Shown here one piece after another: positions 2,579 through 36,069 of a stretch of 58,171 nt of DNA. The position numbers and the translations under genes were made by a program. The stretch lies in assembly GCA_017996315.1 (NCBI GenBank), contig JAGOHE010000001.1, forward strand, positions 1 to 58,171, given 5' to 3'. This DNA comes from Kiritimatiellia bacterium. GTDB taxonomy: Bacteria; Verrucomicrobiota; Kiritimatiellia; PWTM01. Position 1 is the stretch's first letter; each line of letters begins with the position of its first letter. The notes under the pieces were generated by a model. It had not been told where the DNA came from. It saw nothing but the letters and a program-made list of their open reading frames with translations, and did no database searches.

Positions 2579-4138
2579 ATGAAGCTCCACCCCTGGCTGG
2601 CCACTTCGATCCTCGCCACCACCGCATCGGTCGCGGCGGAGCGCCCCAACGTGCTGCTCATTTACGGCGATGATGTGGGCTGGGGCGACATCAGTATCCA
2701 GGGCGCGACGAAAATCCGGACGCCGAACATCGATCGCCTCGCGGCGCAGGGACTGCGATTCACCGATGGCCACTGCGCGTCGGCCACTTGCACTCCTTCC
2801 CGATTTTCCCTGCTGACGGGCGTGCACGGTTTCCGCCATGCCATCCGGGTGCTGGCGCCCGATGCGCGCCTCACGATTCCCACGGACCGTCTCACCCTGC
2901 CCCGCGTGTTCAAGCAGGCCGGCTATCAGACCGCCGTGGTCGGCAAATGGCATCTCGGGCTGGGTGCGGAGGGCCGGCCGCTGGACTGGAACGGCGAGGT
3001 CAAACCCGGGCCGATGGAACTCGGGTTCGACTATAGCTTTCTGCTGCCCTACACAAATGATCGCGTACCGTGCGTGTATCTGGACGGCCATCGGGTTCTC
3101 CGTCTCGACCCCTCCGATCCCCTCTTTGTCGGCTCGCGGCCGCCGGATGCGAAGGTCACCGAATACCCGGATGGCCGGAAGAATCCCGAAGCCATGACCT
3201 ATTACCGCAGCAGCCACGGCCACAACGAATCCGTCATCAACGGTATCGGCCGCATCGGCCGCCAATGGGGCGGCCAATCCGCGCTCTGGAACGACGAGAC
3301 CATGACGGATGAATTCGTGGCGCGCTCGAAAACCTGGCTGAAAGACCGCGACCCTTCGAAGCCGTTCTTTCTGTTCTATGCCGCGCAGAACATTCATGTG
3401 CCCCGAACTCCGCATCCGCGCTTCCGGGGCGCCAGCGAGCTGGGTTATCGCGGGGATTCGATGGTTCAGTTCGACGATGCGGTCGGCGAACTTTTGAAGA
3501 CGCTGGATGAACTGAATTTGACGGACGATACCCTCGTCATCTTCTCCAGCGACAACGGTCCGGCCTATGACGACGGATACGAGGACGGCACCACCGTGCT
3601 GACATCCTCCCGGGAATCGGATCGCGGGCACGACGCTTCGGGACCGTACCGCGGGGGAAAATACCAGATCTTCGAAGGCGGAACCCGGGTGCCGTTTATT
3701 CTCCGATGGCCGGGACGCATCCGGCCGGGCGTCTCCAATGCGCTGGTCAGCCAGATTGATTTCATCGCCTCTTTCGCCGCCCTGCTGCGACAACCCCTTC
3801 CGGACGGCGACGCCATGGACAGCCGCGACACGCTTTCTGCGCTGCTGGGTCAGGACCGCGTCGGTTTGCCTTACCTCGTGGAAGAAGCTCAAACACTGGC
3901 CCTGCGCGAGGGTCCATGGAAGTTTATTCTCGAACCCAAGCGCCCGGACGGCGACGAACTGTATCATCTGGAGCGGGACGCGGGAGAAACCGAAAATCTT
4001 CTGCAACAACACCCGGAACAAGCTGCGCGCATGCGTCAGCAGTTGATTCGCATCCGCGAGGCCCGGGGCGGCATCCGGTCGCTGGAGCGCGGCGCCGCCG
4101 GTGCCGTACCCCCACCCTCTCCGACGGCGGCCCGATAA
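2579..4138 (+). CDS. arylsulfatase (formylglycine-dependent sulfatase family), secreted
   Basis: ORF 2483..4138; likely start is the ATG at 2579 (MKLHPWLATSILATTASVAAERPNVLLIYGDDVGWGD, signal peptide). Contains the C-x-P-x-R formylglycine motif (CTPSRFSLLTG) and GKWHLG. Confidence 0.9.
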   Translation: MKLHPWLATSILATTASVAAERPNVLLIYGDDVGWGDISIQGATKIRTPNIDRLAAQGLRFTDGHCASATCTPSRFSLLTGVHGFRHAIRVLAPDARLTIPTDRLTLPRVFKQAGYQTAVVGKWHLGLGAEGRPLDWNGEVKPGPMELGFDYSFLLPYTNDRVPCVYLDGHRVLRLDPSDPLFVGSRPPDAKVTEYPDGRKNPEAMTYYRSSHGHNESVINGIGRIGRQWGGQSALWNDETMTDEFVARSKTWLKDRDPSKPFFLFYAAQNIHVPRTPHPRFRGASELGYRGDSMVQFDDAVGELLKTLDELNLTDDTLVIFSSDNGPAYDDGYEDGTTVLTSSRESDRGHDASGPYRGGKYQIFEGGTRVPFILRWPGRIRPGVSNALVSQIDFIASFAALLRQPLPDGDAMDSRDTLSALLGQDRVGLPYLVEEAQTLALREGPWKFILEPKRPDGDELYHLERDAGETENLLQQHPEQAARMRQQLIRIREARGGIRSLERGAAGAVPPPSPTAAR

Positions 4139-4281: not shown

Positions 4282-7200
4282 ATGAGCATTACAACCGGCC
4301 AGATGAAATTGCGATACGGGGTCTGCCTGGCAAGCTGTGCCCTGGCTCTGGCGGCGAGCCTCGCCTTTCTCCGTTGGACTGGGCGGGATCTGGATCAATG
4401 GATTCAAGACCAACTGCAGCATGGCGCGTGGCATGTCGCACAGTCCACCAATGTGGAGCTGGTGAAGAAGCTGGCGTCGGGAACCCAGCCGACCGTCAGC
4501 GCCGAACAGGAACGTCTGCACCAGCATCTGGTAAAAATACTGCCTTGGATTTCTCACGCAACGCGCCTGCGCATTCTTGCGGTGAAGGAGGGTCGTCCGG
4601 ACTGGGTTCTCGCGGATTCTCTTGCGTTGCCTCCTGCCGGCGCCCCGCCGCAGACCGCACCTCCGGCGCCCTCCGGCGAGACCGCGGATAGCTTGCGTCA
4701 TATCCAGACGCATCGCTCGTCCTCGACGATTCTTGTTCAGGCCCCGATTCTGGACGCCCGAACGGGCCGCGTCATATCCTTCGTGATTGTCGATTTCGAC
4801 CGACGCGCGTGGTCCGCCTTGAAGACGCAGTCCATGGTGACGCCAGCCGTATTCGCACTGGTATTCACGGCTCTTGGCGTCATCTTGAGCGTACTCTATT
4901 GCCTCCAGCAACGGGGATCGTCCGAAACGTTTTTCACCGCCCCACGCAGGACCTCCCCGATCCTGATCCTGCTGCTGGGCGCCACCGTCACGATCGCCGG
5001 CATGCACACCCTGTACCGGATGGAGCACCGCGCCGACAGAGAAAACTTCCGCGCCGTGGTGCGCACTTCGATCATCAATATCACCGATTCGATCCACAGT
5101 CTGGACGAAGTGCGCCTCGAAAGTATCCGGCGATTCATTGAAGGCAGTGAACAGGTAACGGAGGAAGAATTCGCCTGGTTTACTGAATTTCTACACGATG
5201 ACCCGTCCATTTTCGGCTGGGGATGGGCTGGACCGGCGACTTCGGATACGAACGGGAAGTCCAGCCGTGAATACCGTGTCCGGTACTTGAGCGGCTCCGG
5301 TCTTTCGAAAGCCGGTATCGGGTTTGTCCTGAATTCCGTGCCTGAGCTTTCCACCGCGCTGGAAACGACGCTTCGAACCGGACTCAGTACGGCGTCCGAC
5401 GCCATCCTTCTTCCCCGCCCATGGCCCCGGCAGAAAATCATGCTGGTGTTCCTTCCCATTCATGGGCCTGATCCCTCCCATGCCAATCACGGGGTGGTGT
5501 TCGCGGCGCTTTCCTGGCCCGACATGGTAAACCGCATGGCTGACTTGATGGCGCCCGAGCATACAACCATGCATTTCCGCATCAGCGAGCCGCAAGCGGA
5601 TGAGAATCTTGTCGAACTGGCCATGTTTTCCGGACTCACCGAAACGGGCGCGGCGCCCCCCCCTCTTTCCCTGCGCTCTTCCCTCTGGCACACGCGGACC
5701 CTTCAGGCGTTCGGCCGGACGTTTCTCATCAGCGCGGTGTCCGCAGAGGAGGGCCTGTGGGCAGGAAAACATTCCGGCACCCGGACCGCGGGAGTGGCGG
5801 GCCTGCTGCTCACACTCATGACGGCGGCCTTGATCCGAACCATCGAGAATCGCGGAAACATGCTGCGCCGGGAAGTGCGGGAGCAGACTCTGCATCTTCG
5901 GAAATCCGAAGCATTTGCCCGGTCCACGCTGGATGGGTTGTCCGCGAAGATCGCCATTTTGGGGTCGGACGGAGAGATCCTCGCCGTCAACCAGGCATGG
6001 CGGTCCTTCGCGGAGAAGGGCGCAGGATTGCTGTTCAGCGCGAAGGAGGGCGAAAATTTTCTGCGGATCTGCGACGATGCTCTCGCGGTGGGGCACTCGG
6101 AAGCCGGAAGCATTGCCAAGGCCCTTCGCGCGACGATAGAGGGGACTCCCCAGCCCAACGGCATCGAATGCCGTCTGCACACGCGGCATGGGGACTGCTG
6201 GCTGGAAGCGCGCGTTACGCCCTTCCCCGGAGCAGACCCCGCGCGCGCCATTCTGGCCTACGAAGACATCACCGCACGGCGGAAAGCGGAGCAATCCGAA
6301 CGCAAACTCTCTTCCGGGATCGAGCAGAGCCCGAACATGGTCATGATCACCAGTACGGACGGTCGGATCGAATACTCCAATCCCCGTTTCACGGAAATCG
6401 CCGGGTATCGGCTGGAGGATATACGCGGCAAGGATTTTCATGTCGTCATGGCCGACGACATCGCCCGGGAAGCTACGCTGGAGATCGAGCAGGCCCTGGC
6501 CGAAGGACGCATGTGGGAGGGTGAATTCCAGAATCGGAAAGCGGACGGCACCCCTTTCTGGCACCGGGTGACCATTTCTCCGCTGCGGGATGAGGACGGC
6601 CGGATTACTCATTTCATGGCGGTGGGAGAAGACATCACCAGGCAGCGCGACACCGAAAGCCAGCTGGCGCAGGCGCAGAAGATGGAAACCGTCGGACGGC
6701 TGGCCGGGGGAATCGCGCACGACTTCAACAACTTGCTGCAGATTATTCTGGGATCCGTGGAATTCGCGCTCATGGACACTCCGGCGGATTCGAGCATTCG
6801 CGGGGATCTTGAGGAAATCAAACGCGCGGGGGAAAAGTCCGCCGCGCTGACCCGCCAGCTCCTCACGTTTGCCCGGAAACAGACCATTCAACCTCGGGTG
6901 CTCGATCTCAATGAAACCATATCCAAATTGGTTACCATGCTCCGACGGCTCATCGGGGACCAGATCCAGCTGGACTTTCAACCGGGCGACGGAGTTCCCC
7001 CGGTCTACATGGACCCGATGCAAATCGATCAGATTCTGGTGAACTTGGTAGTCAATGCCCGGGATGCCATCCGGCCGCCGGGCAAAATCACCCTCTCCAC
7101 GACGCCCGTGGAGTTGCAGGCCCAAGAATTGGGAAATCTCCATGCTTCTCTGGCTGGAAAGTTTGCCCGCATCGAGGTCTCGGATACCGGCGCAGGCATG

Positions 7201-7860
7201 GATGAAGAAACCCAGGCCCGGATTTTCGAGCCGTTCTTCACCACCAAAGCCAACGGCCTCGGAACCGGGCTCGGACTTCCGACCATCTACGGCATTGTGG
7301 AACAGAATCGGGGACAGATTCACGTAACCAGCCAACTGGGAAAGGGCACCACCTTCCACATCGATATTCCGGCCACCACAAAATACCTTCCTCCGGACGA
7401 GTTCGACCCGGCCACCACCTCGGGCGATGAAACCATTCTGCTGGTGGAGGACAATCCTCAGGTTCTCAAGTCGGTGGAATCCATGCTCCGGGCGCTGGGG
7501 TACACCGTGTGGGCCACCACCGACCCGGAGGAGGCCCGCCGGCGGGCAGAAGACAAAGCCGTGGCTTTGCTGTTGACCGATCTGGTGATGCCCAATATCA
7601 ATGGCCGGGAACTGGCGGAGGCGATCCGCGCACACCGCCCGAACCTTCCGTGTTTGTTCATGTCCGGCTATAACGCCGAAATCATGGGAACCGACGGCGT
7701 CGTGGTCTCCAATATGTTTTTTATCGATAAGCCTTTTACGCAATCCGCCCTGGGGCACATCGTCCGGAAGGCGCTCGATTCCAATCCCCCGCCGTCTCCC
7801 CCCGCACCGTCTTCCAAACCTTCGTCCGGACCGTCGCACACCGGAACTGGCGCGGCGTGA
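4282..7860 (+). CDS. hybrid sensor histidine kinase/response regulator (periplasmic sensor, TM, 2 PAS, HisKA, HATPase_c, REC)
   Basis: 1192-aa ORF. N-terminal TM plus extracytoplasmic region and a second TM. PAS-like segments (STLDGLSAKIAILGSDGEILAVNQAW; SPNMVMITSTDGRIEYSNPRFTEIAGY). H-box AHDFNNLLQII, N-box NLVVNARDAI, G-boxes DTGAGMD and GLGTGLGLPTIYGIV. Receiver ILLVEDNPQV...LLLTDLVMPNINGREL. Confidence 0.9.
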   Translation: MSITTGQMKLRYGVCLASCALALAASLAFLRWTGRDLDQWIQDQLQHGAWHVAQSTNVELVKKLASGTQPTVSAEQERLHQHLVKILPWISHATRLRILAVKEGRPDWVLADSLALPPAGAPPQTAPPAPSGETADSLRHIQTHRSSSTILVQAPILDARTGRVISFVIVDFDRRAWSALKTQSMVTPAVFALVFTALGVILSVLYCLQQRGSSETFFTAPRRTSPILILLLGATVTIAGMHTLYRMEHRADRENFRAVVRTSIINITDSIHSLDEVRLESIRRFIEGSEQVTEEEFAWFTEFLHDDPSIFGWGWAGPATSDTNGKSSREYRVRYLSGSGLSKAGIGFVLNSVPELSTALETTLRTGLSTASDAILLPRPWPRQKIMLVFLPIHGPDPSHANHGVVFAALSWPDMVNRMADLMAPEHTTMHFRISEPQADENLVELAMFSGLTETGAAPPPLSLRSSLWHTRTLQAFGRTFLISAVSAEEGLWAGKHSGTRTAGVAGLLLTLMTAALIRTIENRGNMLRREVREQTLHLRKSEAFARSTLDGLSAKIAILGSDGEILAVNQAWRSFAEKGAGLLFSAKEGENFLRICDDALAVGHSEAGSIAKALRATIEGTPQPNGIECRLHTRHGDCWLEARVTPFPGADPARAILAYEDITARRKAEQSERKLSSGIEQSPNMVMITSTDGRIEYSNPRFTEIAGYRLEDIRGKDFHVVMADDIAREATLEIEQALAEGRMWEGEFQNRKADGTPFWHRVTISPLRDEDGRITHFMAVGEDITRQRDTESQLAQAQKMETVGRLAGGIAHDFNNLLQIILGSVEFALMDTPADSSIRGDLEEIKRAGEKSAALTRQLLTFARKQTIQPRVLDLNETISKLVTMLRRLIGDQIQLDFQPGDGVPPVYMDPMQIDQILVNLVVNARDAIRPPGKITLSTTPVELQAQELGNLHASLAGKFARIEVSDTGAGMDEETQARIFEPFFTTKANGLGTGLGLPTIYGIVEQNRGQIHVTSQLGKGTTFHIDIPATTKYLPPDEFDPATTSGDETILLVEDNPQVLKSVESMLRALGYTVWATTDPEEARRRAEDKAVALLLTDLVMPNINGRELAEAIRAHRPNLPCLFMSGYNAEIMGTDGVVVSNMFFIDKPFTQSALGHIVRKALDSNPPPSPPAPSSKPSSGPSHTGTGAA

Positions 7861-7902
7861 AGCGCGGTTGACAGCCCGATACGCAATGGTGAGAATACAT
7901 TT

Positions 7903-8631
7903 ATGAAAGGGTACCCTATGCCAACGCGTCGCATGCGCCGATTCCTGATGCTCGTCTCTGCACTTCTCGCCACAGCCGCTCCGATCACGGCCCGCGCCGC
8001 GGAACTGGCCACGAAATCCACGGGCCAATCCACGGGCCTGTTTGCGATCGGGCCCCGCTTCGGAACCACCGGGCTGGGCGCCGATTTGGCGTTTCCTCTC
8101 GGAGATCATTTCCGCGTTCGTTTTCTGGGATCCATTGGGTATTTCTCGTTCGATGGCGACATGAGCGATGTGGAATACGCCATTGACGTCAGCACCCCCA
8201 CGCTCGGCGGCGTCATGGATATTCATCCCGGCGGCGGCGCCTTCCGCTTCTCCCTCGGCGCATTCTGGACCGGCATCGACGCGGATGGATCGGCCCGACC
8301 GACCGACAATGTCTCCATTGGCGATGTGGACTATCCTCCCGCCGCCATCGGAAAGCTGAATGCCACGCTGGAATATCCATCCGCCATGGGCTATGTGGGC
8401 ATCGGGTTCGGAAACTCCTTCGTCGACAGCCGATGGACGGTCTCGCTGGATCTGGGCGTGCTGGTGGGCTCCTCTCCCGACTTCACCCTGGAATCGGAAG
8501 GCGGATTACTCTCCAACGATCCAACATTTCGCGCGGAGTTGGGAAAGGAGGAACAGGAGATTCGGGACGACATTACGGACCGGCTGCGCATCTATCCGGT
8601 GCTGACTCTCGGCCTCTCCTTTAGATTCTGA
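7903..8631 (+). CDS. outer-membrane beta-barrel protein (hypothetical)
   Basis: 242-aa ORF with a signal peptide (RRFLMLVSALLATAAPITARA), alternating beta-strand-like pattern and a terminal aromatic residue (LSFRF). Its stop overlaps the next start (TGATG at 8629-8633). Confidence 0.6.
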   Translation: MKGYPMPTRRMRRFLMLVSALLATAAPITARAAELATKSTGQSTGLFAIGPRFGTTGLGADLAFPLGDHFRVRFLGSIGYFSFDGDMSDVEYAIDVSTPTLGGVMDIHPGGGAFRFSLGAFWTGIDADGSARPTDNVSIGDVDYPPAAIGKLNATLEYPSAMGYVGIGFGNSFVDSRWTVSLDLGVLVGSSPDFTLESEGGLLSNDPTFRAELGKEEQEIRDDITDRLRIYPVLTLGLSFRF

Positions 8632-10860: not shown

Positions 10861-10936
<76 letters not shown>

Positions 10937-11087
10937 ACATCACCGCACCTTGTCGTGAGCGCGCGCTCACTCCCCTGCCCTGCCGCGAAACGGCTTGCGC
11001 GGCAACCCGCCGCGCCCTCCCGCTCACGTCACCGACCAATTCCTGCCGTTCTCTCTGGCCTTCTCCGGCATGGCCTGTTAGCGTTCC

Positions 11088-14000
11088 ATGGTCACGCGAA
11101 GACGGCATCCGTTCGACATGACCGTAACCGAGTTCATCGCGAAGTGGCGCAAGGTGGAACTGAAAGAACGGTCCGCCGCTCAAACCCATTTCATTGACCT
11201 TTGCCGCGTCTTCGACCACCCCGACCCCGTGACGGCCGATCCGACCGGCGAAAGCTTCTGCTTTGAGAGGGGCGCAGCCAAGCACGGAGGCGGCGACGGC
11301 TTCGCGGACGTGTGGAAACGCGGCTTCTTCGGCATCGAATACAAAGGCAAACACAAAGACCTTCTTGAAGCCTACGACCAGCTTCTACGCTACCGCGACG
11401 CCCTGGAAAGCCCACCCCTGCTTCTCTGCTGCGACCTTGACCGCATCGTCATTCATACCAACTTCACCGGCACCGTTTCGGCGACCCATGACATACCCCT
11501 TGAAGCCCTTGCCGAACCCCGCAACATCGAAATCATGCGGGCGGTCTTCCACGATCCCGAAGCCCTCCGCCCAGGCCGCACGAGTACCGCCGTCACCCAG
11601 GATGCCGCCCGGCACTTCGCCGAAATCGCCGCCGCCATGCGCGCGCGCGGCCTTGACCCGGCCGCCGTCGCCCACTTCCTTGACCGCCTGGTCTTCTGCC
11701 TCTTCGCCGAAGACACCCGCCTCTTGCCCGATATGGTCTTCAGCCGAATCGTGACGCAAGCGGCCGGCGACCCCGCCCGCTTCTGCAAGATTTTGGCGCA
11801 ACTCTTCGACACGATGGCGACCGGCGGCGACTTCGGCCTTGAACCCATCCGCCATTTCAACGGCAACCTGTTCGATGACCGCACCGTCCTTGACCTCACC
11901 GCCGACGAAGTGAAGCGCATCGCCGCCGCCGCAACCCTCGATTGGAGCGCCGTTGACCCTTCCATCTTCGGCACCCTGTTTGAACGCGGCCTTGACCCCA
12001 ACACCCGCGCGCAACTGGGCGCGCACTTCACCAGCCGGGAAGACATTGAACTCATCGTTGATGCCGTGGTCATGGCCCCGCTTCGCCGGGAGTGGGCGGA
12101 GACGAAGGCGGTCATCGGGAATCTCCTCGCGACGGGGAATAAGGCTCGGAGCGCGGGCGTCCCGCCCGCATCTTCCTCGAGCGTGAGCGTCCCGCCCGCA
12201 TCTTCCTCGAGCGCGGGCGTCCCGCCCGCATCTTCCTCGAGCGCGGGCGTCCCGCCCGCATCTTCCCCGAAACCGCCCCGTGAATGGCATTCCCGCGGAT
12301 ACCTCCCGCATTTCGACCACCCGGGCCTTGTCCAGACCATCACCTTCCGCCTGGCCGACTCGCTCCCCCCCAGCCTTGTTGAACGTCTTCTCGCGCACAA
12401 GGAGAATGCCGACGATCCGATGCTACGCCAGGAAATCGAAGATGCACTGGACGCGTCGCATGGCGCCTGCTACTTGCGCGATCCGCGCGTTGCCGCCGTT
12501 ATCCAGAACGCGCTGCTGCATTTCGATTCCGAACGCTATCGCCTGCTCGCATGGGTAGTCATGCCCAACCATGTTCATGTCATGCTTGAGACGCGAACCG
12601 GCCACCGTCTCGAAGACATCCTGCATTCCTGGAAGTCTTTCACGGCTCACGAGTGCAACCGCCTCCTGAATCGCACGGGGCGTTTCTGGCAGGAGGAATA
12701 TTTCGACCGATTCATCCGCGACGCAGAACACCTGCGCAAGGCGCGGGATTACATCGAGCGCAACCCCGTTAAAGCCGGGCTTTGCAAGAGGGCGGAGGAA
12801 TGGGCGTTTGGAAGCGCCGGATACCCAAAAGATGCGGGCGGGACGCCCACGCTCCCAATTGCGGGCGGGACGCCCACGCTCCCAGGAAAGACGCTCAGCC
12901 CCGCGAAACTCCGCAAGGCGCGCGGCGAAGCCGGCAGCGTCTTGCACCAGTTCCTGACAAAACTCCGCGCCGTCAAGATTCTCGATCCCGCCTGCGGCTC
13001 CGGGAACTTCCTCTATGTCGCCTTGCTCCGCCTGAAAGACCTGGAGAAAGAAGCCGCCGTCACCTTCCCCGGTGAACACGGCTTGGGTTCCTACCTGCCC
13101 GGCGTCAGCCCGCTGCAACTCTACGGCATCGAAACGAACGCCTACGCCCATGACCTTGCACAGATGACCGTATGGATTGGCTGGCTGCAATGGATTCGCG
13201 CCAACGGCTTCGGCTTCCCCGACAACCCCGTCCTGCGCCCCCTCACCAATAACATCCGCCGCATGGACGCTATCCTTAGGAGCGCGGGCGTCCCGCCCGC
13301 ATCTTCGGGAACGGCGGCCGTCCCGCCCGCATCTTCGGGAATGGCGGGCGGGACGCCCGCGCTCCCAGGCGAGGAACCCGAATGGCCCAAGGTTGACTTC
13401 ATCATCGGCAACCCGCCGTTCCTTGGCGGGAACAAAATCCGCCAAGAACTCGGCGATGCTTATGTTGACGCTCTCTTTTCGTTGTACGCTGGCCGTGTGC
13501 CGGCTTTTGCCGACCTCTGCTGCTACTGGTTCGAGAAGGCCCGCGCCCACATCGCCGCCGGCAAGTGCAAACGCGCCGGACTGCTGGCAACCCAGGGCAT
13601 ACGCGGCGGCGCGAACCGGGAAGTCCTCAAGCGCATCAAGGAAACCGGCGGCATCTTCTGGGCGGAGAGTGATCGCCCTTGGATTCTCGATGGCGCGAAC
13701 GTTCACGTCAGCATGATCGGCTTCGGAGCTAAGGGCGAAATCCCTGGGAGCGCGGGCGTCCCGCCCGCTCTTAACGCTGGCGATAATGCGGCCGGGACGG
13801 CCGCGATCCCAGGGGCACTTCTCGACGGCAAGCCCGTCCCCACGATCAACGCGAATCTGACCGCCGCCGCCGACACGACACAAGCCGTCGTTTTGAAGCA
13901 GAATCTCAACCTGTGTTTCATGGGCCCGTCCCCAAAGGCCCCTTTCGACATCGGCCGTTCAACGGTGATGCCCTTGCTTGCACCGGCAGGGAACCCAGAT

Positions 14001-14942
14001 TGCCGGCCCAATTCTGATGTTCTTCGCCCCGTTGTAAGTGCTGTAGACATTGCACAAAGATCCCGTGGTGAATGGACGATTGACTTTGGGCTTCTCCCGA
14101 ATGGGGAAGCATCCAGATATGAAGCCCCCTTTGAGTATGTCAAAACCGTAGTCCTTCCCGTACGAGAGAAACGACGCGATGACTACCGTGGACTCTGGTG
14201 GCAATACGCACGTCCCAGACCTGACATGCGTATAGCATTGCGTGGGCTGGGTCGGTTTGTTGCAACACCCGCCGTGGCCAAGCACCGATTGTTTGTCTGG
14301 ATGGACCCCGTGTGTCTGTGTAACCAAGGCACGCTTGTCTTCGCCCGCTCCGACGACTACTTCTTCGGCATCCTGCACTCCCGCTTTCATGAAGTCTGGG
14401 CGCTGGCCCAGGGAACCCAGTTGCGAGAGAAGGAAAGCGGCTTCCGCTACACCCCGACCACCTGCTTTGAGACGTTCCCTTTCCCGGAGGCCCAGGCCGA
14501 ACGCGACGCGGCGATTGCCGCCGCCGCCAAGGAACTGAACGAACTCCGCGAAAACTGGCTGAATCCGCCGGACTGGACGCGCACCGAGACTCTGGAATTC
14601 CCCGGCACAGTCGGCGGCCCGTGGGATCGGTACATTGTCCCTGGGAGCGCGGGCGTCCCGCCCGCATCGTCGCAACGCGAGAACGAAAGCGGTCGGGACG
14701 CCCGCGCTCCCAGGGTGGGCACCGTGCGCTATCCGCGCCTTGTGCCGCGTGACGCCGACTGCTCGGCCCGGTTGAAGGAACGGACGTTGACGAAGCTCTA
14801 CAACGTGCGTCCGCCGTGGCTGGCCGACTGTCACGCCCGGCTTGACGCGGCGGTCGCCGCCGCCTACGGCTGGCCCGCCGACCTGCCCGACGAAGCGATC
14901 CTTGAACGCCTGCTGGCCCTGAACCAAGCGGCCGCCGGTTGA
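11088..14942 (+). CDS. MmeI-family type IIG/IIL restriction-modification enzyme (nuclease + N6-adenine methyltransferase + TRD) with embedded REP units and a RAYT module
   Basis: Single 1284-aa ORF (alternative start ATG at 11118, MTVTEFIAKWRK). N-terminal D...ExK nuclease core (FADVWKRGFFGIEYKGKHKDL), MTase motif I (ILDPACGSGNFLY), motif IV (IIGNPPFLGG), and the family C-terminus (LTKLYNVRPPWLADCHARLDAAVAAAYGW). All motifs are in one frame despite five blocks of repeat-derived sequence. Confidence 0.85.
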   Translation: MVTRRRHPFDMTVTEFIAKWRKVELKERSAAQTHFIDLCRVFDHPDPVTADPTGESFCFERGAAKHGGGDGFADVWKRGFFGIEYKGKHKDLLEAYDQLLRYRDALESPPLLLCCDLDRIVIHTNFTGTVSATHDIPLEALAEPRNIEIMRAVFHDPEALRPGRTSTAVTQDAARHFAEIAAAMRARGLDPAAVAHFLDRLVFCLFAEDTRLLPDMVFSRIVTQAAGDPARFCKILAQLFDTMATGGDFGLEPIRHFNGNLFDDRTVLDLTADEVKRIAAAATLDWSAVDPSIFGTLFERGLDPNTRAQLGAHFTSREDIELIVDAVVMAPLRREWAETKAVIGNLLATGNKARSAGVPPASSSSVSVPPASSSSAGVPPASSSSAGVPPASSPKPPREWHSRGYLPHFDHPGLVQTITFRLADSLPPSLVERLLAHKENADDPMLRQEIEDALDASHGACYLRDPRVAAVIQNALLHFDSERYRLLAWVVMPNHVHVMLETRTGHRLEDILHSWKSFTAHECNRLLNRTGRFWQEEYFDRFIRDAEHLRKARDYIERNPVKAGLCKRAEEWAFGSAGYPKDAGGTPTLPIAGGTPTLPGKTLSPAKLRKARGEAGSVLHQFLTKLRAVKILDPACGSGNFLYVALLRLKDLEKEAAVTFPGEHGLGSYLPGVSPLQLYGIETNAYAHDLAQMTVWIGWLQWIRANGFGFPDNPVLRPLTNNIRRMDAILRSAGVPPASSGTAAVPPASSGMAGGTPALPGEEPEWPKVDFIIGNPPFLGGNKIRQELGDAYVDALFSLYAGRVPAFADLCCYWFEKARAHIAAGKCKRAGLLATQGIRGGANREVLKRIKETGGIFWAESDRPWILDGANVHVSMIGFGAKGEIPGSAGVPPALNAGDNAAGTAAIPGALLDGKPVPTINANLTAAADTTQAVVLKQNLNLCFMGPSPKAPFDIGRSTVMPLLAPAGNPDCRPNSDVLRPVVSAVDIAQRSRGEWTIDFGLLPNGEASRYEAPFEYVKTVVLPVREKRRDDYRGLWWQYARPRPDMRIALRGLGRFVATPAVAKHRLFVWMDPVCLCNQGTLVFARSDDYFFGILHSRFHEVWALAQGTQLREKESGFRYTPTTCFETFPFPEAQAERDAAIAAAAKELNELRENWLNPPDWTRTETLEFPGTVGGPWDRYIVPGSAGVPPASSQRENESGRDARAPRVGTVRYPRLVPRDADCSARLKERTLTKLYNVRPPWLADCHARLDAAVAAAYGWPADLPDEAILERLLALNQAAAG
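12149..12266 (+). repeat. Four tandem 30-bp REP hairpin units (forward orientation) inside the R-M ORF
   Basis: Unit GAGCGCGGGCGTCCCGCCCGCATCTTCCTC repeated 4 times with a 30-bp period (10 codons, peptide SAGVPPASSS). Each unit contains the hairpin GCGGGCG-TCC-CGCCCGC. Confidence 0.9.
12829..12886 (+). repeat. Two tandem inverted-orientation REP units (27-bp period)
   Basis: GATGCGGGCGGGACGCCCACGCTCCCA then ATTGCGGGCGGGACGCCCACGCTCCCAGG, the reverse complement of the 12149 unit. Peptide DAGGTPTLPIAGGTPTLPG. Confidence 0.9.
13278..13369 (+). repeat. REP block: two forward units plus one inverted unit, just upstream of MTase motif IV
   Basis: AGGAGCGCGGGCGTCCCGCCCGCATCTTCGGGA, ACGGCGGCCGTCCCGCCCGCATCTTCGGGA, ATGGCGGGCGGGACGCCCGCGCTCCCAGG. 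Peptide SAGVPPASSGTAAVPPASSGMAGGTPALPG. Confidence 0.9.
13743..13813 (+). repeat. REPIN-like doublet (forward REP + degenerate inverted REP)
   Basis: CCTGGGAGCGCGGGCGTCCCGCCCGC ... GCGGCCGGGACGGCCGCGATCCCAGG. The inverted copy carries paired substitutions that keep its stem (GCGGCCG/CGGCCGC). Confidence 0.85.
14640..14714 (+). repeat. 75-bp REPIN with perfect 21-bp terminal inverted repeats
   Basis: CCTGGGAGCGCGGGCGTCCCG ... CGGGACGCCCGCGCTCCCAGG. Exactly 25 codons (peptide PGSAGVPPASSQRENESGRDARAPR) in the R-M frame. Confidence 0.9.
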
Positions 14943-15203
14943 CCCATCACGCCCCCGGCGATCCACCGACGATGAAACAGGCACTCCGTCCTGTGTGAAG
15001 GTCCCACAAGCCTGGGCGCGCGCGCACGAAAATTTTCTACACTCTGCGGGGCAAGTGCAAACAGACACCGCCTTCCGGCCGGTGTTCCGATTGAATCCGC
15101 GCCCTTCAGTCTGGTGTGTGTGCTTTGTGTGTGCGGTTGTGTGTGCTTTTTCTCTCCCGGTTTCACCGCTATTCACGCGGAAGCAATAAAAGGCCATAAA
15201 AGC

Positions 15204-15240
15204 AAAACCCCCGGATTTCCTAGGAAAACCGGGGGTTTTT
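15204..15240 (-). terminator. Rho-independent (bidirectional-looking) terminator immediately 3' of tRNA-Met
   Basis: AAAA-CCCCCGG-ATTTCCTAGGAAAA-CCGGGGG-TTTTT. 7-bp GC stem with an inner TTTCC/GGAAA extension, and A/T runs on both sides. Confidence 0.7.
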
Positions 15241-15250
15241 GGCTTCAAAG

Positions 15251-15327
<77 letters not shown>

Positions 15328-15339
15328 ATCAGAGGGTTT

Positions 15340-15367
15340 AGTATCGCGGATTTCTCGAAAAATGCAA
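15340..15367 (-). promoter_or_regulatory. candidate sigma-70 promoter for tRNA-Met
   Basis: On the minus strand: TTGCAT (15367-15362), a 16-nt spacer, then GATACT (15345-15340), 12 nt upstream of the tRNA 5' end. Confidence 0.4.
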
Positions 15368-15425
15368 GCGCATTCGCGGTCGAAAACATATTTTCCCGGG
15401 GCGCGCCGCGGGGTATGATGTCGCC

Positions 15426-15920
15426 ATGAACGCGAATTCGAAACCCCGCGCCCGATCGGCTGCTTCGCCGAGGGCGGCGCGGCCGCATGCCTACCAATTG
15501 CTCCTGCGCATGATGGGGCAGGTCGCGTTCTGGCAAACGTTGGGGTTTATCGCGCTGGTGTCTCTGGTCTGGGCTCTCCGCGCCAACCGGATTATCGAAT
15601 TCATCCTGCCCGGTACGCGTGAGACCGAGCGCGAATGGTTCGGCGCCTGGATTACCACCGCCGCCATCTTCGCCATCGGCATCATTGTGGTCGTCAACAC
15701 CCACCAGCAGCAGAAACGATTGCTCAGGGGACTCATTCGCGTCTGCGCGCATTGCCGGAAGGTGCACGTCGAAGCGTCCGAATGGCAGCAGATTGAGGAT
15801 TTCATCAGCGCCCGCACTCTGGTCGAGTTCACCCACGGGATCTGCCCGGAATGTCATCAAAAGCTGCTTCAGGAAATGGACGCCGCGGTTCCCGCTCCCC
15901 CGGGAGTCCGGACCACATGA
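15426..15920 (+). CDS. small two-TM membrane protein with a C-terminal CxxC...HxxCPxC zinc-ribbon-like domain
   Basis: 164-aa ORF. Two hydrophobic helices (VAFWQTLGFIALVSLVWAL; WITTAAIFAIGIIVVVN). C-terminus RVCAHCRKVHVEASEWQQIEDFISARTLVEFTHGICPECHQK. ATGA overlap with the next gene. Confidence 0.65.
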   Translation: MNANSKPRARSAASPRAARPHAYQLLLRMMGQVAFWQTLGFIALVSLVWALRANRIIEFILPGTRETEREWFGAWITTAAIFAIGIIVVVNTHQQQKRLLRGLIRVCAHCRKVHVEASEWQQIEDFISARTLVEFTHGICPECHQKLLQEMDAAVPAPPGVRTT

Positions 15921-16885
15921 CCCCGAGGTGGTCCGCGTGGTCCGCATTGACCATGGGCGCCGTGCGCGAAATCCTGCGCCAGCCTATCACCCTCATCCTG
16001 ACCGGCGGTATGGCCGTCGGCATTCTTCTGCTCCCCGCCGTGACCACCCAAACCCTGGGCGAAACCTCCACGGTGGTGCGCGACGGCGCCCTTGCCCTCC
16101 ACCTGTTCTTCGGTGTGCTGCTGGCGGGGCTTTCCGCCTGCCACGGCATGACCGGCGACCTGACGCGCGGCGCGGCGGCGACGGTTTTGAGCAAGCCGGT
16201 CTCGCGCACCGCGTTCCTGCTGTCGCGCTACGCGGCGCTCCTGATCGTCCTGCTCGTGTTCTCCCTCATCGCCACGTTCGAAACCCTCGTGACCGTGCGT
16301 GTGGCGCAGGACGCCTTCCAGCTTGAATGGAAACTCTGGGTTCCCGCGATTCTCGCCCTGCCGGCAGGATGGGCGGTGGCGGCGGCGATCAATTATGTCA
16401 CCCGCCGGCCGTTCCCTTCCGATGCCTTTTTCGCGGTTCTGATCGCGGCGCTGGCCGCCCTGTTGCTCGCGCTCCGGATGCCGCTTCCGGCGACGGATGC
16501 CGCGCCGGGCCCGTCGCTGTTCCCGCCCCTGCTTCCCGTGTGCGCGCTGCTGACTCTGGCGCTGTTCGTGATGGGCGGCATCGCCCTCGCGCTGTCCACA
16601 CGCCTGCCGCCGGTGGCAACGGTGACGTTGTGCAGTGTGATCTTCGTGCTCGGTCTGATGTCCGACTATCTCTTCGGCCGCGCCGCGGATACTTCGGTCG
16701 TGGCGGGGATTCTTCACGCGGCGCTCCCGAATTGGCAGCATTTCTGGCTGGCCGACGCGCTGCACATCAACCGGGACGTCCCCTGGAGCTATGTGGTCTC
16801 GGTGTTGGGCTATGCGGCGTTGTATAGTACCGGCATGCTCTCCATCGCCATCGCCCTGTTTCAGAGCCGGGAGGTGTCCGCATGA
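15917..16885 (+). CDS. ABC-2-type-like polytopic permease (no cognate ATPase nearby)
   Basis: ORF 15851..16885; likely start is the ATG at 15917, which overlaps the upstream stop (ATGA). About 7-8 TM helices. VLSKPVSRTAFLLSRYAALLIVLLVF resembles the ABC-2/NosY-type permease signature. Confidence 0.55.
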   Translation: MTPRWSAWSALTMGAVREILRQPITLILTGGMAVGILLLPAVTTQTLGETSTVVRDGALALHLFFGVLLAGLSACHGMTGDLTRGAAATVLSKPVSRTAFLLSRYAALLIVLLVFSLIATFETLVTVRVAQDAFQLEWKLWVPAILALPAGWAVAAAINYVTRRPFPSDAFFAVLIAALAALLLALRMPLPATDAAPGPSLFPPLLPVCALLTLALFVMGGIALALSTRLPPVATVTLCSVIFVLGLMSDYLFGRAADTSVVAGILHAALPNWQHFWLADALHINRDVPWSYVVSVLGYAALYSTGMLSIAIALFQSREVSA

Positions 16886-30540: not shown

Positions 30541-30658
30541 ATCCCGGCAACGTGCTACTCTCCCGAGGCCTGTCGCCTGAGTACCATCGCCGCTGAGGGT
30601 CTTAACGGCCGTGTTCGGAATGGGAACGGGTGTTTTCCCCTCGCTATAATCACCGGGA
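30541..30658 (-). rRNA. rrf: 5S ribosomal RNA
   Basis: The reverse complement contains conserved 5S blocks (CCCGTTCCCATTCCGAACACGG...GGTACTCAGGCG...GGGAGAGTAGCACGTTGCCGGGA). Ends approximate within a few nt. Confidence 0.9.
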
Positions 30659-30724
30659 AAAAAGTATTGCATAGGAAAGGGGAGGCGGACGGCTCCGCGG
30701 GGGAGCCAATCCGCCGTAAAAATT

Positions 30725-33673
<2,949 letters not shown>

Positions 33674-33796
33674 AAAAATTGGTCGTTCAACATTCACTGA
33701 AAATTTCAGTGAGTCGTAATTTTTTCCCCAATTCCTATGCAATTGTCAAAGAACCACCCGCCAAAGCGGGAAAATGGTTTTACATGGCGGCACGCC

Positions 33797-33873
33797 TGGT
33801 GGGCGTGACTGGAGTCGAACCAGTGACCTCGTCCTTATCAGGGACGCGCTCTAACCAACTGAGCTACACGCCC
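33797..33873 (-). tRNA. tRNA-Ile (anticodon GAT) in the 16S-23S spacer
   Basis: The reverse complement is GGGCGTGTAGCTCAGTTGGTTAGAGCGCGTCCCTGATAAGGACGAGGTCACTGGTTCGACTCCAGTCACGCCCACCA; anticodon loop CTGATAA. Confidence 0.92.
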
Positions 33874-33952
33874 GGAGTTTCTGGCCTGCCCGGGCGTAGT
33901 TCCGTGATGGTCATCGCGCCCAGCTCCGTGTCCGTTCCGAGGAAACGAAGCC

Positions 33953-34028
33953 TGGTGGAGGCAACCGGGTTCGAACCGGTGACCCCAAGCTTGCAAAGCT
34001 TGTGCTCTACCAACTGAGCTATGCCCCC
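33953..34028 (-). tRNA. tRNA-Ala (anticodon TGC) in the 16S-23S spacer
   Basis: The reverse complement is GGGGGCATAGCTCAGTTGGTAGAGCACAAGCTTTGCAAGCTTGGGGTCACCGGTTCGAACCCGGTTGCCTCCACCA; G3:U70, anticodon loop TTTGCAA. Confidence 0.92.
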
Positions 34029-34204
34029 GGATGTCACCGGCGCCGGTCGGCATTTCCGGCCCGTACGCCATGCTGAATAGCGGAGCGCTGTAGTACCCTG
34101 AATCAAGAATGGTGCGATTTGCTTGGCTTGGCCCCTTCCCCCGGACGAATCCAGAGGAGATAACCTATCCAAACCCGAGCCGAAGCTCGAGATGGATGCT
34201 CCTT

Positions 34205-35764
<1,560 letters not shown>

Positions 35765-36069
35765 GTAATTATTTACATAGTTACTTTTGGAGCTGCCAGC
35801 GGGGCTAACCGCCAGCACTTTGTTGTCCTGTTACGGACCCAATTAAATTGCCTCTTGCGATCACTCGCAATAGGCCGGGCACAAGCTCGTCACAAATCGC
35901 ACCACTCTTGATTCAGAGTGGCGCTCAAAACGCTATTCAAATTTCAAAGAACACAAAGCAACCGCTTCAACCGTTGCCCCGACTTTTCAGCGGGGACGGC
36001 CTCGGCAGTCACCTGAACTGCTCCGGCGTGCGCGTGCTTTTATGCGCACGCCATCACTGAATCTTCCGC

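Follow-up and report, generated by a model that had tools for sequence, protein, structure and literature searches.

A RAYT transposase gene nested in frame, between REP hairpins, inside an MmeI-family restriction-modification gene

A RAYT domain inside a restriction-modification gene

We analyzed a stretch of DNA of 58,171 nucleotides (58 kb; hereafter the window) from a Kiritimatiellae metagenome-assembled genome (MAG), in which a single open reading frame (ORF) encodes both a restriction-modification (R-M) enzyme and a REP-associated tyrosine transposase (RAYT), the latter flanked by short hairpins known as repetitive extragenic palindromes (REPs). The host of all the insertions is an MmeI-family Type IIL/IIG R-M gene at 11118..14942 on the forward strand, encoding 1274 amino acids from the ATG at 11118. 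A second in-frame ATG lies further upstream, at 11088, from which the ORF encodes 1284 amino acids; the homologues begin at the methionine of the ATG at 11118. The frame is free of stop codons throughout 11088/11118-14942 (+). In a single translation of this one frame Pfam identifies MmeI_N, MmeI_hel, Y1_Tnp (amino acids 480-559 of the 1284-residue ORF), MmeI_Mtase and MmeI_TRD. One polypeptide thus carries an N-terminal nuclease, a helical spacer, a gamma-class methyltransferase and a target-recognition domain in the order that characterizes the MmeI family. PADLOC assigns the host ORF to REase_MTase_IIG (E=9e-269), and among known folds the protein matches MmeI itself (5HR4) best. The catalytic motifs D70/D74...E84-Y-K86 (PD-(D/E)XK), DPACGSGNF (motif I) and GNPPF (motif IV) form invariant columns in 12 aligned alleles including that of the window, whether the alleles carry a RAYT or not. 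Judging from the retained nuclease, methyltransferase motif I and NPPF motifs, the host enzyme is probably still functional.

The host protein is deposited as MBP7274581.1, a record of 1284 amino acids named just "transposase" in GenBank, and the R-M identity of 80% of the protein is thereby lost in annotation. An open frame by itself is weak evidence in this window of 64% GC. Long ORFs (337-1011 amino acids) also lie opposite real genes, at 11385-13883 (-), 13959-15947 (-) and 5191-8226 (-), as is typical of DNA of this composition.

The RAYT domain, a Y1 HUH protein of the TnpA-REP family, spans 189 codons at 12267..12833 (+) and is identified by NCBIfam model NF047646, a match to 4ER8, an alignment with 15 free-standing RAYTs, and AlphaFold2 (AF2) modeling with Foldseek. 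The score of 95.5 bits with NF047646 (REP_Tyr_transpos) exceeds the cut-off of 80. The His-Val-His codons of the HUH motif (H485/H487, numbered from the methionine at 11118) are at 12570..12578 (+), within NHVHV at 12567-12581, and the catalytic tyrosine codon (Y545) is at 12750..12752 (+), within DYIERNPV. The E. coli TnpA-REP protein 4ER8 aligns with both in register, its tyrosine region reading DYIYINPV; in an alignment of 116 homologues the HUH column is nearly invariant or invariant and the tyrosine column is invariant. With these residues kept, the RAYT is probably still a nuclease/ligase of single-stranded DNA (ssDNA) hairpins. An AF2 model of the cassette alone, built from the 116-sequence alignment, reaches a predicted local distance difference test score (pLDDT) of 82 overall and 86-97 in the core, with low-confidence REP-coded tails; its best match in the PDB is again 4ER8 (E = 2e-9, target-normalised TM-score 0.67 in Foldseek). 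Free-standing relatives are 53-64% identical and 187-250 amino acids long, with their methionine 4-6 residues (in some up to ~40) ahead of the (K/R)EW motif, part of a conserved (K/R)EWxSRGY. Because these relatives start just before (K/R)EW, the window RAYT lacks only a start codon and no part of the domain.

An earlier note on this DNA, made from the sequence alone, had described a complete RAYT without a start codon of its own, lying in frame within the R-M polypeptide between the nuclease/helical part and methyltransferase motif I. The one-frame Pfam result, the NF047646 score and the 4ER8 alignment bear this description out, and the motifs it listed (REWHSRGYLPHFD, VMPNHVHVML and RKARDYIERNPVKAGL) are present as it gave them. 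The cassette lies between the helical spacer and motif I; neither flank is separated from the RAYT by a stop codon, and the ORF stays open to 14942.

Upstream of the RAYT the sole in-frame start-like codon is a GTG at 12183..12185 (+), within the second REP unit; it is preceded by CGCCCGCATCTTCCTCGAGC, which holds no Shine-Dalgarno sequence. This agrees with the earlier note, which had found neither an ATG nor a ribosome-binding site there. No other in-frame ATG, GTG, TTG or CTG occurs in the 60 codons before the RAYT, and the GTG is not conserved in L001-L003 (L and P numbers denote the loci and proteins that we compared). In L001 the corresponding 60 codons hold no ATG, GTG, TTG or CTG at all, so internal initiation is unlikely. 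No promoter-like site was found in 10900-15300. An intein, which the earlier note had discounted for want of splice-junction residues, was rejected here as well: Pfam finds no Hint/intein domain in the R-M translation, the splice-junction nucleophiles (Cys/Ser at the N-junction; His-Asn plus Cys/Ser/Thr at the C-junction) are missing, and the actual junction residues, NKAR|SAGV and LPGK|TLSP, are neither intein-like nor conserved from one fused allele to another. RNA-level removal or ribosomal bypass of the 738 nt was also considered and dropped, as no feature supports it.

REP hairpins and sequence constraint

Four tandem forward REP units of 30 nt each (10 codons, read SAGVPPASSS) precede the RAYT at 12149..12268 (+). 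Their cores, GGGCGTCCCGCCCGC, start at 12155, 12185 (one mismatch), 12215 and 12245, a spacing of 30/30/30 nt, and each unit folds into a hairpin with a 7-bp stem and a 3-nt loop, GCGGGCG-TCC-CGCCCGC. The 3' boundary of the cassette is formed by two inverted units with 27-nt spacing at 12829..12886 (+), read DAGGTPTLP and IAGGTPTLP, with cores at 12834 and 12861. These core positions confirm the four direct and two inverted repeats reported in the earlier note. The forward and inverted arms are 92-96% complementary, so the RAYT is flanked by cognate inverted REPs, and the hairpins fold as predicted. As an ssDNA oligonucleotide the REP reads GGAGCGCGGGCGTCCCGCCCGCATC.

The repeats extend beyond the cassette. 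Allowing up to two mismatches, we counted 14 occurrences of the 15-nt core across the window against 1.8 expected, and 0 of 100 shuffled sequences reached this count. All 13 good cores lie within the R-M ORF and none in the remaining 54 kb. Nine further in-frame cores of the same ORF, absent from the earlier note, form three clusters that fold into long REPIN-like hairpins (z -5.9 to -10.6). The first cluster, a triplet of two forward units and one inverted unit at 13279..13369 (+), lies in the methyltransferase domain between MDAIL and EPEWPKVDF (-46.8 kcal/mol, z = -7.1), at the very site that holds the RAYT in P0017 and P0022. A REPIN-like inverted pair at 13743..13810 (+) marks the boundary between the methyltransferase and target-recognition domains (IGFGAK...LLDG; z = -5.9) and was found in none of the compared homologues. 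Another such pair, at 14639..14715 (+) in the C-terminal region, reads GSAGVPPASS...SGRDARAP (z = -10.6). In total, five insertion blocks are specific to the window, all in frame and predicted to be disordered, and all absent from L006, L007 and L009. Being multiples of 3 nt placed in loops, with homologues that do without them, they have the character of the intragenic REPs of "REP-decorated proteins". The 5' tag before the stem is GGAG or CGAG in the window and GTGG in L004 and L005; GGAG does not figure among the GTAG-tag variants (GTAG, GYAG, GTRG, GTGG) listed in PMC3733652.

Confinement of REPs to the host gene is also seen elsewhere. In L001-L004 every REP core is within the MmeI gene, and L005 has one core-like match upstream of it; the MmeI genes of the RAYT-less loci L006-L010 contain no REP core. 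REP-like peptides occur in 24 of 120 homologues, around residues 350, 500 and 870, with the reservation that the 5-residue pattern used can match by chance. The reading phase of the units is strongly biased. Across six MmeI loci, 35 of 35 forward cores are read in the single phase giving (S/G)AGVPP(A/V), and AGGTPAL is the reading of 12 of 13 reverse cores. A REP is stop-free in all six frames, and the phase used avoids Arg-rich alternatives. The bias indicates either selection at the protein level or a phase-specific insertion mechanism.

The exact 17-nt REP core occurs, among the matches listed (L011-L130), in MAGs of Planctomycetota, Acidobacteriota, Chloroflexota, Proteobacteria, Verrucomicrobiota, Armatimonadota and others, and on multiple contigs in several genomes such as Reyranella sp. 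CA_2019_TPBS_184. These listed matches are mostly single occurrences in GC-rich MAGs; none of the loci has an MmeI gene and two have a RAYT. Single matches may be due to chance in GC-rich DNA, as a rough estimate gives some hundreds expected for a word with 16 of 17 G+C in ~600 Gb, and the scan says little about the REP census of this genome.

In order to assess constraint on the RAYT, we estimated the ratio of nonsynonymous to synonymous substitution rates (dN/dS) by the Nei-Gojobori method. The ratio is 0.12 for the window versus L001 and 0.14 for the window versus L002. Nested RAYTs keep their catalytic residues at a dN/dS of about 0.1-0.2, with the HUH motif and the tyrosine retained in all nested copies. 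Between L140 and L180, which share one insertion site in HmaB, the RAYTs are 67% identical and the host halves 58-62%; between L004 and L005 the RAYTs are 72% identical and the host segments 77-88%, with synonymous sites saturated in both pairs.

Filled and empty sites, other hosts and genomic setting

The comparison of host genes covered the 120 closest homologues. The earlier note had proposed a search for proteins that combine Y1_Tnp with MmeI domains; seven of the 120 do so, namely the window's own protein and six others. P0002, P0003 and P0010/P0036 carry a RAYT at the site occupied in the window. P0017 and P0022 carry one of another lineage (RRGAYLPHW type), with other REPs (GTGVPPV and HGQDAHAT peptides), at a second site, which is the exact position of the window's REP triplet. 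In P0004-P0006, the closest alleles (94-95% identity in the N-terminal 340 residues), the site is empty and is taken up by a native linker of 13 residues. The relatives therefore show either empty sites (P0004-P0006 and L006-L010) or the same in-frame fusion (P0002, P0003, P0010 and P0036). The arrangement that the earlier note named as fatal to its claim, a free-standing RAYT abutting two R-M fragments, was found in none of the close relatives, and the fusion reading survives.

Two fused alleles, P0010 and P0036 (L003), share every residue up to 744 but one (residue 11), the RAYT included, and diverge strongly just after NPPFLGG, with 159 differences in all outside the RAYT. The pattern of these sequences is that of recombination swapping the target-recognition half, and hence of mosaic evolution. 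Near-identical fused proteins also occur on two or three contigs from different sources (P0002 with P0242; P0017 with P0243 and P0244), where the differences are too few for testing selection after insertion.

Nesting is not confined to the MmeI family. We collected 80 metagenomic RAYT loci by a RAYT-domain search of contigs, regardless of host, and found in-frame nesting in 8 of them, with the frame open for hundreds of codons on both sides and both host halves in the frame of the RAYT in each case. The hosts are HmaB/DUF1156 methylases (n=6, two insertion sites), an MmeI protein (n=1) and an isoleucyl-tRNA synthetase (n=1). The MmeI case, L197, has its RAYT at a third linker, after FPWP, and in P0450 the RAYT separates the methyltransferase from the target-recognition domain, which makes a fourth MmeI site. 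An exhaustive HMMER search covered 1.84 billion cluster representatives, of which the best 150 RAYT matches were examined; 22 of these 150 are at least 440 amino acids long, and at least 11 of the 22 have MmeI, DUF1156 or N6_Mtase hosts. In one long protein, a regulator, the RAYT parts the WYL domain from the WCX domain.

A RAYT lies in frame, at two or more sites, in HmaB/DUF1156 genes of L131, L132, L139, L140, L152 and L180, and further HmaB/DUF1156 proteins of this kind are P0374, P0386, P0395, P0397, P0415, P0443 and P0483. The HmaB gene of L180 has an extra low-complexity in-frame insertion of ~150 amino acids at ~2780-3200 (KEEEGKKKEEEG...SSSSHSS), which occupies the RAYT site of L131, L132 and L139. 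In the isoleucyl-tRNA synthetase P0245 (L165 1925-6070, a Planctomycetaceae MAG) the RAYT spans amino acids 693-877, with REP-coded flanks, upstream of the KMSKS region. A search with this synthetase returned a single RAYT-bearing allele, the nearest relatives (88-89% identical) being without the insert, and such a singleton does not show that an essential gene keeps the insert over the long term. REP-coded peptides (AGARASCP, DAGGTPALR) also lie in frame within the RAYT itself in P0121, P0133, P0167 and P0010, in the loop after the first strand-helix unit; in-frame REPs within RAYTs have been described for subclass 2.4 (PMC6006769). JGI records give some free-standing RAYTs the name "putative DNA methylase", which may stem from annotation models trained on such fusions.

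In a neighbor-joining tree (numpy NJ) of nested and free-standing RAYT sequences, the nested ones are scattered among free-standing lineages, which indicates that nesting arose many times. The nearest sequence to the RAYT of P0010, for example, is the free-standing P0167, at 80% identity. The RAYTs of the window, P0002 and P0003 form a clade of their own.

In the window the R-M gene is a single-gene island between tRNA-Ala(GGC) at 10861-10936 (+) and tRNA-Met at 15251-15327 (-). The RAYT-less homologues L007-L010 adjoin phage-type integrases or sit on integrase-bearing elements, which suggests that the R-M gene family moves horizontally. Elsewhere in the window a complete rRNA operon (5S, 23S, tRNA-Ala, tRNA-Ile, 16S) at 30542-35766 (-) indicates that the contig is chromosomal and accounts for a dip in GC content at 30-36 kb.

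Expression, origin and relation to known elements

We lean towards the reading that the fusion protein is made and that both of its parts function, the gene having received in frame a "REPtron", that is, a RAYT gene between inverted REP hairpins. Its point of entry would have been the linker that joins the helical spacer to the methyltransferase. Since the cassette has neither a start nor a stop of its own, the RAYT would most likely be made only as an internal domain of the host polypeptide of ~140 kDa, from the promoter and ribosome-binding site of the host, with the REP-encoded stretches of Gly, Ala, Pro and Ser serving as flexible tethers. It would act mainly in cis, on REPs near its own gene, and such action would explain why three extra REP clusters lie in frame in this ORF and none in its flanks. 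As for origin, 8 of the 38 free-standing loci have a longest ORF that opens ahead of the 5' REP and closes beyond the 3' REP, and a REP-delimited unit taken from such a locus would carry neither start nor stop. A unit of this kind could have replaced an in-frame REP pair already present in a permissive loop, after which selection would retain in-frame products only. Embedding in mobile defence genes may provide a vehicle and also protection from decay, because any frameshift in the cassette would kill the host gene too.

Several observations weigh against parts of this account. The confinement of REPs to one gene could equally reflect the horizontal import of an already decorated gene into a REP-free genome, and both the position between two tRNA genes and the integrase-bearing elements that hold RAYT-less homologues fit such an import. 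Synonymous divergence (dS) is saturated in most comparisons, and part of the RAYT divergence may predate insertion. For the window versus L001 the dS of the RAYT is 1.24 versus 0.30 for the N-terminal/flanking host part, which means that the locus is mosaic or that the insertions were independent. The fragment P0199 also falls within the clade of the window, P0002 and P0003, and because it nests there the exact monophyly of the fused RAYTs has a bootstrap of 0/200. Among the long RAYT proteins, some of those fused at a terminus may be artefacts of ORF extension in GC-rich DNA. Finally, in a full-length AF2 model (1200 amino acids, shallow alignment; mean pLDDT 62) the RAYT reaches 30-73 and is not confidently modeled; in the same model the REP-coded segments fall below 50 (predicted disorder) and the MmeI domains reach 70-90.

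Four other explanations have to be weighed. The cassette might be a passenger only, an inert or decaying insert with an inactive RAYT, whose frame is kept open by selection on the host alone, an enzyme that would tolerate a large insertion in a loop. Stop-free REPs and the frequency of long spurious ORFs in this DNA are what such an insert would need, close relatives without it look intact, and the window, with no REPs outside the gene, gives no hint that the RAYT acts in trans. We nevertheless consider a passenger unlikely, given a RAYT dN/dS of 0.11-0.14, catalytic residues kept in every nested copy, RAYTs that are more conserved than the host halves between L140 and L180, and a window RAYT that scores above a curated equivalog cut-off; a neutral insert of 189 codons would moreover gain stops or indels over a dS above 1. 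It is quite improbable that the fusion ORF is incidental and the RAYT a separate product, arising by internal initiation (at GTG 12183 or a non-canonical codon) or by proteolytic release. The GTG, 28 codons ahead of the RAYT, reflects a point change in a REP unit and has no Shine-Dalgarno sequence, L001 has no candidate start, no start is conserved in L002 and L003, and no promoter-like site was seen. Internal initiation also would not account for the 3' junction being always in frame and stop-free. What speaks for it is that the REP-coded linkers, predicted to be disordered, could be protease-sensitive, and that some free-standing RAYT ORFs begin upstream of the 5' REP and read through it (P0124, P0134).

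The RAYT might instead have been domesticated together with the inverted REPs, either as a switch whose excision from and re-insertion into ssDNA toggles or reshuffles the enzyme, or as a domain whose HUH motif adds ssDNA nicking. The related IS200/IS605 Y1 transposases excise precisely from ssDNA, alleles that share 95% of their N-terminal 340 amino acids differ in whether they hold the cassette, REP clusters lie at domain boundaries, and the hosts are strongly biased towards defence methylases. The empty alleles, however, have the native 13-residue linker and no REP scar, and the breakpoint between P0010 and P0036, after NPPFLGG, is not at a REP. The nesting of the same RAYT family in an isoleucyl-tRNA synthetase and a WYL regulator further argues against an R-M-specific function, and on balance domestication of this kind seems rather unlikely. 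There is, lastly, very little chance that the fusion is an artefact of metagenome assembly, in which shared REPs linked a RAYT locus with an MmeI gene. The contig does come from a MAG, and REPs are repeats able to mislead assemblers, but the host sequence on both sides is one gene, the same architecture recurs in diverged form (62-79% RAYT identity) and always in frame in independent ENA, NCBI and JGI assemblies, and near-identical fused proteins were recovered from two or three contigs of different sources.

The nested cassette resembles several known elements. A REPtron, as described to date, consists of a RAYT/TnpA-REP gene with inverted REPs on either side (Nunvar 2010; Bertels & Rainey 2011, PMC3116915; Ton-Hoang 2012, PMC3333891; Corneloup 2021, PMC8266576), and the family context of Y1 transposases is given in PMC6006769 and PMC8266576. 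The window shares with it a Y1 HUH protein of the TnpA-REP family and short cognate inverted hairpin repeats, also in inverted doublets (REPIN-like), but its RAYT is not a free-standing gene with a start and stop of its own, being nested in frame in another gene. Its REPs, moreover, are intragenic only in the 58 kb seen rather than dispersed extragenically, and their 5' tag is GGAG/CGAG rather than GTAG. The likeness to inteins and homing endonucleases lies in a selfish enzyme unit that sits in frame in a host protein without translation signals of its own and whose decay by frameshift or nonsense mutation would also destroy the host gene; unlike an intein, the insert has no Hint domain or splice residues, shows no sign of protein splicing and presumably stays in the mature protein. 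An IS200/IS605 identity was rejected. That family has a related Y1 HUH transposase and ssDNA hairpin ends, with no target duplication expected, but the IS200 model NF033573 gives 23.9 bits, far below its cut-off of 55, and we found no tnpB, no IS ends and a single copy in the DNA seen.

Rickettsia palindromic elements are in-frame palindromic repeats inside ORFs, as Ogata reportedly described in 2000. In-frame intragenic REPs have been published as "REP-decorated proteins", including peptides of Opitutus terrae (Di Nocera 2013, PMC3733652). Both cases resemble the window in having in-frame units or doublets of 10-30 residues in loops of DNA-handling enzymes, and the O. terrae GTAG-19 peptides (GTGVPPV, HGQDARAT) are of the same kind as those in L004 and L005 (PMC3733652). 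The difference is that they consist of repeats only, while here a transposase gene is nested, recurrently, at linkers that also take REP-only insertions. Quentin 2018 (PMC6006769) reported in-frame REPs within RAYT genes, as seen here in P0121, P0133 and P0010, together with a few "unexpectedly long" TnpA-Y1 proteins per subclass, which were discarded as "gene fusions or annotation errors". The long proteins found here recur, keep the frame at both junctions, show a bias in host family and are constrained in sequence. The earlier note had called the architecture one it did not know to be described. It proves to be recurrent, and in-frame REPs were already in print (PMC3733652), but the nesting itself is undescribed in the literature searched, where no paper links RAYT/TnpA-REP with MmeI, DUF1156 or in-frame nesting. 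The components and in-frame REPs are thus known, and the start- and stop-less nested transposase gene, its recurrence and its host bias are undescribed.

The window is one case of a recurrent RAYT lifestyle, mostly in horizontally mobile defence DNA methylases. More tentatively, it may belong to an unrecognized lifestyle that spans lineages, in which REP-RAYT cassettes without start or stop reside within defence methyltransferases (MmeI-type IIL/IIG, HmaB) and occasionally within essential genes, are translated as unspliced internal domains in an intein-like manner, are protected from decay and are carried between phyla. In practical terms, the loci offer natural examples, of use in protein engineering, of MmeI-type and HmaB enzymes that tolerate an enzyme of ~250 residues in defined linkers, and they matter for annotation, as the names "transposase" (the window protein in GenBank) and "putative DNA methylase" (some free-standing RAYTs in JGI) illustrate. 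RAYTs have been regarded as free-standing, single-copy, vertically inherited, domesticated transposases, and the route by which they and their REPs reach new genomes has been unresolved. If true, the nested lifestyle would contradict this strictly free-standing, single-copy and vertical view, and a RAYT that depends on a host ORF and recurs in mobile defence methylases suggests both a vehicle for spread and an intein-like persistence.

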